This document shows positions 4,714-23,621 of a DNA stretch of 64,000 bases, piece after piece. This DNA is from Nitrospirales bacterium (GTDB lineage: Bacteria; Nitrospirota; Nitrospiria; Nitrospirales; UBA8639), in the NCBI GenBank assembly GCA_963555755.3, contig OY820905.2:2400001-2464000 (forward strand), in the 5' to 3' direction. A program made the position numbers and the translations under genes. The notes under the pieces were generated by a model, which was given only the letters and a program-made list of their open reading frames with translations, ran no database searches and was not told the DNA's origin. Each line of letters opens with the position of its first letter. The stretch's first letter is position 1.

Positions 4714-5168
4714 AAGCTTGCTTTACATTTTGCTTGCTTGCTTTTAACATTCAAAAATACATGTGTCAATAAAAAATTTAAAGAAAGTATCTATTAAATT
4801 AACACATCTTTTGAGTTTCATTAAAAATTATATCAGAATATCTATGCAAGCACCAAAATAAGTTTGTATTTTTTCTGAGCATATAGATAAATTTTAATAC
4901 TTGCTAGAATTAATACTTGAAAGCCAATATTTAGTAGTCTGAAGAAAATGGATACTATTAGTTTGATGTAAATTTTTCCATCCTCACCCTTTTTTTGGGT
5001 TAATTCTAGAATGGTCTGTTGGAGTAATCGCCTTTGTATATAATGTAGGGTTAAGATTTTGCGTTTCCTTGTTGGGGCTGTTGAATATTTCGCGTCAATT
5101 GCCAATAAAAGCTCTGGATGAGCCAAGCATTGTCAAGGGGAGGGAATGTTCAAAAAAGCATGCCCTTG

Positions 5169-5174
5169 TATAAT
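5169..5174 (+). promoter_or_regulatory. -10 box of the circle-junction promoter (-35 TTGACT at 6360-6365)
   Basis: Joining the ends at CT gives TTGACT-N17-TATAAT. Confidence 0.8.
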
Positions 5175-5179
5175 GCAAG

Positions 5180-5400
5180 GAAGGGTTGTAGGCCAACTCA
5201 CCCGAGCTGCCTCTTGTCTGAAGAGGGCATAGCCAACGTAGGGAAAAGGCTGTACCCTCACGGTATTGTGAATCCTGGCATGATAGACCGTTTGCCCTAT
5301 GGGAATCAGCCCGTGACTCAGCGCAGGTCGTCATGCCCTTTCTCTGATGAACCCGAACGGTTGCCTGGGACACCAAGCCCGTATCAACAAGGTTGGGAGA
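5180..5400 (+). ncRNA. Putative bridge RNA of IS110 element 1 (ends approximate)
   Basis: Target guides GTTTGCCCT (5290-5298) and GACTCAG (5315-5321) within stems; donor guides ACGGTTGC (5357-5364) and ACAAG (5387-5391). Confidence 0.8.
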
Positions 5401-5407
5401 CAGAGCG

Positions 5408-6382
5408 ATGAAATCAAAATCCTCAGAATTGTTTATCGGTATCGACATTTGTAAAGCTCGATTAGACGTGGCAGACAATGCCAATTCGCTTCCATGGTCG
5501 GTAGCCAACAACGACGCCGGCATCGCCGCGCTGGTGGAGCGGCTCCACGTCCTTCACCCCACTCTCATCGTGATGGAAGCCACAGGGGGGCTGGAAACGC
5601 TTCTGTATGCGGCCTTAACCACCGCCGGGTTGCCGGCGGTCGTCATGAATCCCCGTCAGGTGCGGGACTTTGCCAAGGCCCTGGGCACCCTGGCCAAAAC
5701 CGATGCCCTGGACGCCCGAATCTTGGCTCGCTTCGGGGCGGCGATCCAGCCGGCGGTCCGGCCCATGAAAGACGCCACCACCCAGGAATTGACGGCCTTG
5801 GTGACACGGCGACGGCAGTTGCTTGCCATGCAGACGGCGGAAAAAACCCGCCTCCAGCAAGCAGCCAAATGGATCCGCAAAGATATCAACGCTCATATCG
5901 CCTCCCTGGAAAAACGGCTCCAAACAATCGAAGGTCATATTGCCGAGATTATTAAACAGACCCCCGGCTGGAAAGAGAAAGATTCGCTCCTTCGAAGTGT
6001 GCCGGGGGTGGGCAACGTCTTGTCAATGAATCTCCTCAGTAGCCTGACCGAACTCGGGACGCTCAACCGAAGAGAAATCGCCACGCTGGTGGGCGTTGCC
6101 CCCTTAAACCGCGACAGCGGAAACGTGCGCGGCAACCGAAGGGTCTGGGGAGGCCGGGCCCAAGTCCGCGCCGCCCTCTACATGGCGGCCCTGTCCGCAT
6201 CACGATTTAATCCGGTCATCAAAACATTTTATCAACGCCTGATTGCACAAGGGAAAAAACCCAAAGTGGCCCTCACCGCCTGTATGCGAAAACTTCTGGT
6301 CATTCTGAATACGATGGTCAAAACCCAAACAGCATGGAACCCAAATCAATATTCAACCCTTGACTTTAATCACGGTTGCTGA
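5408..6382 (+). CDS. IS110 DEDD recombinase, apparently intact
   Basis: GIDICK, MEATGG, KTDALDA (DEDD) and NRDSG serine motif. Confidence 0.95.
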
Positions 6383-6537
6383 GTCTTTCCGAAGGGTCTA
6401 TCCAGCAAGGCCGCAGCCATTTTGACGCGCGGAGCGTACTCATAGTACGTGAGCACGGCAAAAGGGCGAGAACGCCGCTGGCGGCTTTTTTCAACATTCC
6501 CTTGTTGAAAAACACATAGCTATAGTAAGTTCATCCC

Positions 6538-20800: not shown

Positions 20801-21304
20801 TTACGACAAGGACTCGCGAGTGGCCATCCCAAACGGCAAATCCCCATCCACATCGGCCAACAAAATGACCTGTCTGCCACTCCAAATCAACACTCCGTGC
20901 CCCTGTCTGGTTATCCCGGTATTTCGTGCCTGCCGCTTCCACTCACCTTCCCATCGAATGTTGACTGTGGCCCGTCCACCTTTGAGCGCCATTCGCTCAA
21001 TCGAAAAATTTAGTTCGATATCGGCATAGGTGTTAAAGTCTTTTTTCATGTCCATTTGGAGGCGTTCGAGTCCTTCCAATGGCAACATCAATTCTCGTAA
21101 CGCATCAGAGTCTTTTTCTTGGTAGGCCTCACGTAACCCCTCAATCGCTCCGACTATTCTCTCGAACCGAGCATGGTCTTCAGGATATTGAGGAGTTTTG
21201 GAGCTACATCCAGGCACGAATAGAAGAAGGGAAAAGAAAACACCACAGACCATTAATGAGGGTACTGGCACAGCAGAACGCATTTCGACATTATCCGTGA
21301 ACAT
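20801..21304 (-). CDS. Putative lipoprotein
   Basis: Hydrophobic stretch ending VPGC; start uncertain. Confidence 0.65.
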   Translation of the reverse strand: MFTDNVEMRSAVPVPSLMVCGVFFSLLLFVPGCSSKTPQYPEDHARFERIVGAIEGLREAYQEKDSDALRELMLPLEGLERLQMDMKKDFNTYADIELNFSIERMALKGGRATVNIRWEGEWKRQARNTGITRQGHGVLIWSGRQVILLADVDGDLPFGMATRESLS

Positions 21305-21325
21305 CCAGGGTCGGTCAAGATAGGA

Positions 21326-21430
21326 ACGTGATGGGTAAGGCGTGAGGCGAAAAGAAAGATGGGTTACAGGGTACGCCCTACGAGTCACATCTTTCGCTTC
21401 ACGCTTCACGCATTATGCTTTACGTCTTAC
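21326..21430. repeat. Heptamer tandem/inverted repeat tract
   Basis: gtgatgg/gtaaggc/gtgaggc followed by ttcgct/tcacgct/tcacgca/ttatgct. Confidence 0.6.
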
Positions 21431-21927
21431 AGGTGCATCTATAAAAAAACAGTTGAATAATTCAAATATTTGTGAGTTTTCCAGGGACGGTCTAACCGCC
21501 TCAATTGTCAGAAGGAAAGGGGTTGTTCAAAAAGGCCCATTGTCTGACCCGCCCAACCCAGGCGCGCTAAGACGCGCCCTTCCACAGGCAAGGCCGCAGG
21601 GGCTCCCGGCCTTCGTAGCCACTTCGGCGGAGTAGGCTTGGCGCGCGGAGCGTAGGTGAGTACGTGAGCACGACAAAGGGGATCAATCCCAATTTTGGTG
21701 GAGTAAGGCGAAACCCTCTTACACTCCGCCCGTATCACCCCTCGTCCATTGTCATTTTGACCCTTGGGAGAACTCTCCCCCATTCCCGCCCGGGTCACGT
21801 TCTTTCGGGCCAAGAGATTTCTCCCAAGGGTCGAAATAATGGTATGGACTCCCCCTTTGAGGACGGCATCAAATGTGCCAAGCTGGAAGACTAACCAACC
21901 AGCACTCAACACAAAGGAGGAGTCAGC

Positions 21928-22950
21928 ATGAACGGTACCACGATTGGCGTTGACATTGCGAAGAACGTATTTGAGATCTACGTGGAAGACGAAGCGGGGC
22001 AGGTGGTGGAACGCCGCCGCCTGTCTCGGAAGAAGATGTTGCCCTGGTTTGCGAATCGTCCCCGCGCGGTGGTGGGAATGGAAGCCTGTGGGGGCGCCCA
22101 TTATTGGGCCCGCGAATGAGAAAAGCTCGGCCATGAGGTGCGGCTGATTGCTCCGCAGTATGTGAAGCCGTGGGTGCAGACCAACAAAAGTGATTCGGTG
22201 GATGCCCGAGCCATCTGTCGTGCGGTGCGCGAACCCGGGATGCGGTTTGTCGCGATTGCCAGCGAAGCCCAGCAAGCGGTCCAGGCCTTTCATCGAGTCC
22301 GCAGCCGGTTGATGGGCAATCGGACCGCGCTGGTGAATCAGATCCGTGGGATCTTGTTGGAATATGGGGTCGCTATCCCCAAGGGCGTGGCCTCGGTCCG
22401 CAAGGCATTCCCCCTGCTTCTGGCCGAAGAACGGTGGGCGCCGCTGGTCCGGCAATTCTTGGTGGAGCAACAAGCGGAGCTGCTGAATTGGGATGCCCGG
22501 ATTGAGGAAGTCACCAACCACATCAAGCAGGAGAGTGCCACTCAGCCGGTGTGTCAGCGACTGGAGCAGGTGCGCGGGATTGGCCCGCTGTCGGCCTCGG
22601 CCCTGTGGCTCAAAGCAGCGGGGCAGCCGTATCAGAATGGGCGACACGTAGCGGCCGCCCTCGGCCTGGTGCCCAAGCATACCGGGACGGGGGGCAAGAT
22701 TCGGTTAGGGGGGATCAGTAAACGCGGGGACCGGTATCTCCGGCGATTGCTGATTCATGGGGCCCGGGCCGTGATCAGGCAGGTGGGCGAGAAACCGGAT
22801 CGGCTGAGTGGCTGGCTCCGGGAGCTCGTGGCCCGGCGCGGCATAAATAAAGCGGTGGTGGCGCTCGCGAATAAGAATGCCCGCGTGGCCTTCGCCATCA
22901 TGCATGGAGACCAGCCATATGATGTGACGAAAATGTGTCAGGCGTCATAA
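21928..22950 (+). pseudogene. IS1111 recombinase with in-frame TGA at 22117-22119
   Basis: GVDIAKNVF, GMEACGGAHYWARE*EKLGHEVRLI, KSDSVDA, ALANKNAR. Confidence 0.9.
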
Positions 22951-23160
22951 GACGGAGGAAGATCTTTCCAAGGATTGCGTAGCAGGAAATCCCAACTGAT
23001 GGGCGAAAGCGGTCACCCCCGCGGGAGCAAACCCTGAGTTCTGTCATCGGCTGAGTCATCAAGCCGGCGAAATGCATAGGAGCTTCCGCGCGAAAACCAT
23101 CAAGGCTCGGAACACAGAAGGTTCCATGACGAAGCCGGATATATGACAGCAGACCCGCTC
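22951..23160 (+). ncRNA. Putative seek/bridge RNA of IS1111 element 3 (ends approximate)
   Basis: TTCTGTCAT (23039-23047) and CGAAAT (23068-23073) flank a cggct/agccg stem and match the two halves of the insertion site. Confidence 0.75.
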
Positions 23161-23621
23161 CTTATCAGATGGTAATCCCGCTTGCAAAACAGGGGGAGTC
23201 CATATATGACAGAAGGAAGCCTTCTCGTTGTTCATCCAACCAGACTTGCTCCTTACCACTTCCGCCTCTTGTCATTTCGACCCTTGGGAGAAATCTCGCC
23301 ATTCCTGCCACGCCTGAGCAGGCTGTTCCCCCCTCAACACGGTCCCCATGACCTGCGGCGGGCCATGGAATAGGTCCCAATTCCACCAAAATGGCAACTG
23401 GTCCGACAAAGGCCCAAGAACGCCGCTGGCCTGCCTGCCATAGCCTTGGCGAAGGCTGGCGGACTTTTTCAACAACCCCTAAATTTCTTGACACAACTGA
23501 GGACCCTGTGATACCTCTCAAGTCTCACCATCCGTCTCGGGGCATGAGCATTTCGCCCTTTGTCAGAATCAACAAGTTCGCGGCTGCACATTCCTTGGAG
23601 AGGAATTATTAAGGAGTACGA

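Follow-up and report, generated by a model that had tools for sequence, protein, structure and literature searches.

Three IS110-family elements and their genes

The window analysed here is a stretch of 64,000 nucleotides (C1:2400001-2464000, C1 being the contig OY820905.2 that holds it) in the two-contig, 4.62-Mb genome of a Nitrospirales bacterium, assembly GCA_963555755.3; positions without a prefix are those of the window. It carries three insertion sequences (IS) of the IS110 family, here called E1, E2a and E3, whose predicted RNA guides match short hairpins within multicopy non-coding repeats of the host. Their features are listed below; guide and clade labels are taken over from the IS110 and IS1111 papers cited further on.

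5167-6380, plus strand: E1, an IS110-group element with a CT core (5165-5166 and 6379-6380), present in the genome as 11 complete and 2 partial copies
5167-5407, plus strand: left non-coding end of E1, predicted bridge RNA (241 nt), with a -10 box at 5169-5174
5293-5298, 5315-5321, 5357-5364 and 5387-5391, plus strand: predicted left target, right target, left donor and right donor guides of E1
5408-6382, plus strand: E1 recombinase, 324 aa, intact, with a -35 box at 6360-6365
15126-16624, minus strand: E2a, an IS110-group element with a CT core; -35 box 15142-15147, -10 box 16617-16622
15159-16384, minus strand: E2a recombinase gene, frameshifted at about 16314-16317, after about codon 23
16385-16624, minus strand: left non-coding end of E2a, predicted bridge RNA, laid out like that of E1
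16531-16537, 16506-16512, 16459-16467 and 16435-16441, minus strand: predicted left target, right target, left donor and right donor guides of E2a
21838-23207, plus strand: E3, an IS1111-group element with an AT core and 13-bp sub-terminal inverted repeats (21844-21856 and 23191-23203); single genomic copy
21928-22950, plus strand: E3 recombinase gene with an in-frame TGA at codon 64 (22117-22119)
22951-23207, plus strand: right non-coding end of E3, predicted seek/bridge RNA in IS1111 order, with a -35 box at 23182-23187
23039-23047, 23068-23073, 23096-23100 and 23139-23144, plus strand: predicted right target and left target guides of E3 and two donor matches

All three proteins match PF01548 (DEDD_Tnp_IS110) and PF02371 (Transposase_20), and the NF033542 model gives 210 bits for E1, 236 for E3 and 124 for the truncated frame of E2a, which lies under the cut-off of 140. 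Each element is inserted site-specifically at a 2-bp core and is without terminal inverted repeats, as is typical of the IS110 family. In the IS110-group members E1 and E2 the long non-coding end lies on the left, and its guides run from left target through right target and left donor to right donor; E3 has the sub-terminal inverted repeats, the long right non-coding end and the reversed order of target matches of the IS1111 group. Boundaries, domains and empty sites confirm the three elements and their CT, CT and AT cores as a first-pass annotation of this DNA had placed them. That annotation also called them unrelated, which holds in part: BLASTP of one protein against another finds only short patches of 26-35% identity, and BLASTN between the non-coding ends of different families finds no match. 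Judged from their sequences, the three still belong to one family, as divergent clades of it. In all, 23 Transposase_20 matches occur in the genome, and when these are placed at random, three IS110 lineages fall inside 16.6 kb with P = 0.021, a mild effect that was noticed post hoc.

Only the E1 gene is intact in the window, so the first-pass description of three recombinases is not supported. The frameshift in E2a cuts the first catalytic Asp off from the remainder of the enzyme. We considered assembly error as the source of the broken genes and rejected it, both lesions being unchanged in short-read contigs: the frameshift in run X1, which may be the source sample of the genome, and the E3 stop in runs X1 and X3, which come from two studies. 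All evidence from public runs consists of assembled contigs, which are unable to prove absence. Intact recombinase frames are present in E1, in E2b and E2c (two paralogues of E2a) and in a fourth element, E4; E2a and E3 are defective members. Mobility of E2a would need enzyme supplied in trans by E2b or E2c, and E3 is likely stranded, since the genome has no intact copy of it. The closest plasmid-borne proteins to E3 are less than 50% identical, and 15 of the 16 named records with E3 relatives belong to Nitrospirales or Nitrospirota.

E1 is likely the active element of the three. One of its partial copies is without the right end and the other without the left part, and all 24 surviving junctions of the 13 genomic copies lie at the same CT site. 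Its read depth in run X1 is about 11 times the single-copy depth. Exact empty sites are still plentiful for E1 (76 as 12-mers, 66 as 18-mers) and E3 (56 as 12-mers); E2a has 3 as a 12-mer and 13 as an 11-mer. ISCro4 (E 1e-37) and IS621 (E 2e-35), both of solved structure, can be aligned with the E1 protein along some 310 residues. Its stop codon (6380-6382) is finished by the first two target bases, as in its three closest relatives, and in a circle the frame would run on for 81 more codons through the non-coding end. This target-supplied stop may constrain retargeting, but GA also frequently follows the core in more distant relatives whose stop is internal. In one copy (C1:343015-344222) the predicted donor loop lacks 6 nt at its base, although the open reading frame (ORF) is intact.

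Guide matches and their co-variation with targets

The longest exact guide matches to left target, right target, left donor and right donor are 8/7/8/5 for E1, 7/7/7/7 for E2a and 6/9/6/5 for E3. Summed, they amount to 28, 28 and 26, where shuffles average 19-20, and for no element did any of 2000 shuffles attain the sum; that every non-coding end matches both halves of its own site, as first proposed, is borne out. The target halves alone give P = 0.0025 (E1), 0.026 (E2a) and 0.0005 (E3). The E1 score is slightly inflated, because its 8-nt match at 5332 is the stem that closes the target loop and is kept in relatives with other targets. We rejected that match as a guide; the true left target guide is the 6-nt match at 5293.

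Relatives of each element vary their guides together with their targets. For the E1 family (27 of 36 loci, 9 left out for missing anchors; 25 distinct loops) the score is 308 of 375, against a permuted mean of 261.4, and none of 20000 permutations reached it. The E2 family (17 of 26 loci, 9 left out; 8 guide pairs) scores 65.5 of 80 against 42.4 (P = 0.00015), and the E3 family (14 of 17 loci, 3 left out; 11 combinations) 99.5 of 110 against 80.7, again with 0 of 20000.

The E2 family offers the closest comparison, with three members on one chromosome:

C1:3599338-3600834: E2b, a paralogue with an open frame, 84% identical to E2a in protein
C1:3743127-3744624: E2c, a paralogue with an open frame, 76% identical to E2a in protein

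E2a, E2b and E2c have identical donor 9-mers and unlike flanks, and their target loops differ to match. E2b and E2c are retargeted to two other REP-like hairpins (REP, repetitive extragenic palindrome), so that three E2 members sit on three hairpins in one genome. A site of the E2b type lies empty in the window at 21610-21640. A metagenome contig (L060) carries an E2-family relative whose right end is followed directly by another left end, which suggests tandem insertion.

With the copies thus mapped against the guides (E1 at one site throughout, the changed flanks of the E2 paralogues matched by changed loops, E3 single-copy), site fidelity and co-variation in three families uphold the proposed RNA-guided targeting of multicopy extragenic repeats. 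Targeting might instead be wholly encoded in the protein, with the guide-like matches arising by chance or as remnants of duplicated flanks. The matches are just 5-9 nt long, and the E1 match at 5332 was truly coincidental. That reading must, however, contend with the fixed positions and canonical order of the matches, with co-variation in three families, and with paralogues whose 76-84% identical enzymes use different targets matched by their loops. We regard it as highly improbable and already largely refuted.

Host repeats and nesting

The repeats that hold the three elements are the following; MITE stands for miniature inverted-repeat transposable element.

5074-6501, plus strand: MITE A hosting E1, with 14-bp terminal inverted repeats and a 5-bp duplication TTGTT at 5069-5073 and 6502-6506; 214 bp when empty
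7684-7836, plus strand: empty MITE A copy with an intact E1 target hairpin at 7700-7717
14083-14280, plus strand: empty copy of repeat B, which is about 180-200 bp long and present at 116 loci in the genome
14932-15125, plus strand: repeat B copy interrupted by E2a shortly before its end; its last bases resume from 16625
21518-23481, plus strand: A-type composite wrapper with a REP R module and E3; the module, about 350 bp, has 11 other copies
21750-21837, no strand assigned: REP R inverted doublet; E3 interrupts its second unit at AT, the rest of which continues from 23208, and one more unit, intact, lies at 23270-23297

Repeat A is non-coding and multicopy, and has the terminal inverted repeats and target duplication of a MITE: of 613 terminal-repeat pairs, 73 are flanked by an exact 5-bp duplication, where a shifted control yields 1. 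It was found in 15 of the 41 genomes searched, the source genome included. Leaving E1 itself aside, the MITE A copy that hosts E1 shows no difference along 163 nt from an empty copy at C1:3609133, from which we conclude that MITE A moved recently. The E1 target itself is a 24-bp hairpin module and not the MITE body; 60 of 200 short MITE A copies carry it, and 69 of the 76 empty E1 12-mers lie inside A-type wrappers. MITE A may resemble ERIC sequences (enterobacterial repetitive intergenic consensus), to judge by one 41-nt E. coli match with E = 3.

No partner transposase for MITE A was found among six DUF772 loci and one further candidate. All six DUF772 loci are without matching ends. The other candidate, at C1:3591602, which we take from its protein's motifs to be an IS1595-like element, is one of 40 copies, has its own ends and is inserted into an A copy. 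It spans C1:3591629-3592640 and recurs in near-identical copies at about 39 other sites with AT-rich flanks, at least one copy being inside a MITE A.

Repeat B is a dispersed repeat that we do not class as a MITE; in 29 near-full-length copies no terminal inverted repeat or target duplication was seen by eye. It is asymmetric, with end hairpins and an AT-rich left flank and without a duplication, and by this layout may be a non-autonomous element of the HUH (His-hydrophobe-His) type. A further copy lies at 18700-18920; next to it, a short degraded stretch at 18500-18680 translates into something resembling the start of another IS110 transposase.

Repeat R is a short extragenic palindrome with inverted doublets and a high copy number (122 exact 13-mers), which is the anatomy of REP and REPIN (REP doublets forming hairpins) sequences. 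"REP" is here an anatomical label only: none of the 17 Y1_Tnp matches, candidates for a REP-associated tyrosine transposase, has an R motif within 900 bp.

The first-pass annotation had assigned one element to one repeat family, and this did not hold. The E2 paralogues occupy three hairpins, an E1 relative in a congener (L004) is placed in repeat B, and both the REP R of E3 and the site of E2b lie inside A-type ends; the mapping of elements to repeats is therefore fluid. The layered nesting that it described does exist and reaches four layers in the E1 copy at C1:2353106, with an IS110 element in a hairpin, in MITE A, in a second repeat. The last is a palindromic repeat of about 163 bp; it is also seen in the window at 3076-3238, 3434-3596 and 10381-10544, and one genomic copy hosts an E1-bearing MITE A.

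Predicted DNA hairpins contain or adjoin each of the six targets in this genome (no shuffle control accompanies this count). The target stem-loop may gate insertion besides RNA pairing, the preference for repeats then coming from enzyme and guide together. Such a structure gate has been published for ISPpu10 (10.64898/2026.03.19.712850), and the concentration of empty E1 sites in A-type wrappers would suit it. E1 relatives, on the other hand, have 24 distinct targets, many of them not repeat-like by appearance, and a gate would add to RNA guiding without replacing it. We hold it as a tentative addition, with the odds leaning against it.

Few empty target 12-mers fall in ORFs of at least 200 aa (5 of 76 for E1, 2 of 56 for E3 and 10 of 126 for E4), against an ORF cover of 64%. 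Since the targets lie in multicopy non-coding repeats, many harmless insertion sites are on offer. This could reflect survivor bias alone: insertion would occur at any guide match, and only those lineages that match abundant non-coding repeats would persist, with neither tracking of repeats nor use of their mobility. Almost all exact target matches are repeat copies anyway, the exact E2c 12-mer has a single empty site, and the E5 pair described below sits in no recognised repeat. The account is compatible with the bridge-RNA reading preferred here and differs only on "adaptation". What speaks against it is the E3 family, where the same three right-target bases recur in 14 of 14 scored loci and the left guide shifts among REP types, which suggests long-term specialisation. 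We consider survivor bias a live possibility at slightly less than even odds.

Use of the repeats' mobility bears on the same question. The idea of repeats as "spreading" safe harbours holds for the empty MITE A and is merely hinted at for the filled one. The MITE hosts of the E1 copies at C1:2353106 and C1:344222 are mutual nearest neighbours with 3 differences (the next have 5-6), they have different 5-bp duplications, and their E1 copies have one private base in common. Yet the E1 copy at C1:344222 is nearer to a third E1 copy (2 versus 3 differences), and the one mutual-nearest pair among 11 filled hosts, which survivor bias would also accommodate, is within chance; hopping of filled MITEs is for these reasons only a hint. 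A bolder view would make the still-mobile MITE a moving dock that collects hairpin modules, for each of which a bridge-RNA lineage has evolved guides, with the filled MITE (1.43 kb) hopping to new sites together with its IS110 element and the CT, AT and AG lineages forming a selected, non-cross-reacting set. We think this unlikely.

Proposed mechanism

The best explanation is that bridge RNAs, by the route already known, mobilise these three divergent members of the IS110 family, with guides matching short hairpins in multicopy non-coding repeats; we give it a probability of about 0.9. Boundaries, cores, guide matches, the site fidelity of E1 and E4 and the co-variation of guides with targets were observed directly; circles, transcription and catalysis belong to the model. 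In the cycle of PMC11208160, a circle, a junction promoter and a two-loop RNA lead to recombination at the core. By analogy, each element would excise as a circle, and the joined circle ends would create a sigma70-type promoter. The -35 and -10 boxes for this are present in all three elements, predicted as TTGACT-17-TATAAT (E1), TTGACA-18-TATAAT (E2a) and TTGCAA-17-TATAAT (E3), in agreement with the near-consensus promoters first proposed. The non-coding end would then be transcribed into an RNA that uses one loop to pair with the target and a second to pair with the junction of its own element, and the DEDD/Ser recombinase would join both DNAs at the 2-bp core. Guides would mutate apart from the enzyme, so that lineages would drift onto whatever repeats the host offers, with a possible selective benefit. 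There are at least six target programmes in this genome.

Several points weigh against this explanation. The permutation P values are overstated because the relatives are kin. Left-target guides are imperfect in several relatives and fit less closely than right guides; of 25 E1-family loops, only 11 score best on their cognate target. The non-coding end of E2b scores 12 on the E2a target and 11 on the target of E2b itself. Since the majority of repeat copies stand empty, insertion is limited by other factors as well. Folding of the three non-coding ends is no better than that of shuffles (z -0.94, 0.71, -1.23). No circle junction is among the joints listed for six runs, as contigs that cannot show absence, and the contig cover of the single RNA run is flat over E1 and unable to reveal a discrete RNA.

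Relation to known systems

E1 resembles IS621 and ISCro4 (IS622) in its DEDD and C-terminal Ser domains, left-end non-coding region, CT core and order of left target, right target, left donor and right donor guides (PMC11208160; 10.1101/2025.05.14.653916), as well as in its REP-like target and its junction promoter, the latter seen here at the level of sequence. It differs from them in being distant in sequence, in its target hairpin within a MITE and in its target-completed stop codon. By eye, one sequence in supplementary file 4 of PMC11208160 has a donor loop resembling that of E1.

The order of target matches and the side of the non-coding end differ between IS110 and IS1111 types (PMC11187229), and the left-then-right order in E1 and E2a and its reverse in E3 agree with this rule. 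E3 and E4 resemble the IS1111-group seekRNA elements ISEc11, ISPa11 and ISKpn4 of the same paper in their downstream non-coding region, their sub-terminal inverted repeats and a top-strand match ahead of the bottom-strand match, and ISPa11 targets REPs, as does E3. Unlike those elements, E3 has an AT core and is broken, and E4 has an AG core. Repeat A is like MITEs including ERIC (PMC3184786) in its terminal inverted repeats, target duplication and want of a coding frame, and unlike known MITEs in that no partner transposase was found.

Neither the insertion of two IS110 elements into REPs of one genome nor natural retargeting is new. REP targeting by several IS110 elements is published (PMC1525189, PMC3184786): in Pseudomonas putida KT2440 the dissimilar elements ISPpu9 and ISPpu10 have 7 of 7 copies each in REPs, with 2-bp direct repeats (PMC1525189). 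Those two use one common REP position, whereas the programmes here, at least six, address different repeats or hairpins. Natural redirection of guides is described for ISEc11/ISXne4 and ISEc21/ISMch6, related enzymes (72% identical) with changed guides and targets (PMC11187229); E2a, E2b and E2c differ from such pairs in being three variants on one chromosome with the same donor 9-mers. PMC11187229 also argues from predicted RNA that seekRNAs are not strictly tied to closely related transposases, and 72 orthologues were screened in 10.1101/2025.05.14.653916. The available parts of PMC5581495 and 10.64898/2026.08.14.744561 add nothing decisive.

In the open literature, ISfinder, closed-access papers and bioRxiv supplements being outside its scope, we found no paper on IS110 elements in Nitrospira repeats or on these elements. 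The supplements of PMC11208160, as far as available, have at least two Nitrospirae IS110 rows, neither of them these proteins by eye, and those of PMC11187229 have no Nitrospirae IS110 row by name. Since the mechanism, REP targeting and natural retargeting are known, these elements are further cases of that system and will not surprise a specialist. Their value lies rather in a compact natural experiment (three paralogues, one chromosome, one donor, three guide sets), in four divergent scaffolds side by side with CT, CT, AT and AG cores, and in a clear example, from a Nitrospirales-like genome, of mobile DNA nested four layers deep.

The families have different donors and scaffolds, which are common to the members of E2, and E1 and E2 both have a CT core. 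The orthogonality first proposed is not supported as worded; between families it is plausible. In a 2026 preprint (10.64898/2026.04.29.721476) different cores removed bridge-RNA cross-talk, and naturally orthogonal variants are asked for; the intact AG-core E4 and open-frame relatives of the AT-core E3 are candidates.

Further elements and side features

Two other kinds of IS110-family element lie elsewhere on C1:

C1:193098-194637, C1:563278-564817 and C1:2045143-2046682: E4, IS1111-type with an AG core, intact, three copies with an open 374-aa frame
C1:385797-387282 and C1:70517-72001: the E5 pair, of the IS110 family, one of them broken; a left-end remnant lies near C1:1324050

All three E4 copies occupy one site in a fourth repeat, which has 155 loci (2046-2085 and 33884-33923 in the window) and leaves 126 empty target 12-mers; its guide signal is weaker (P = 0.007 in the shuffle test). 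The common flank of the E5 pair is not a recognised repeat. Rfam has no match in the window. Two tandem arrays of 18-bp units (2546-2905 and 3650-3810) are rich in Lys and Ala codons; the proteins that they would encode, on the minus strand, are basic and histone-like.

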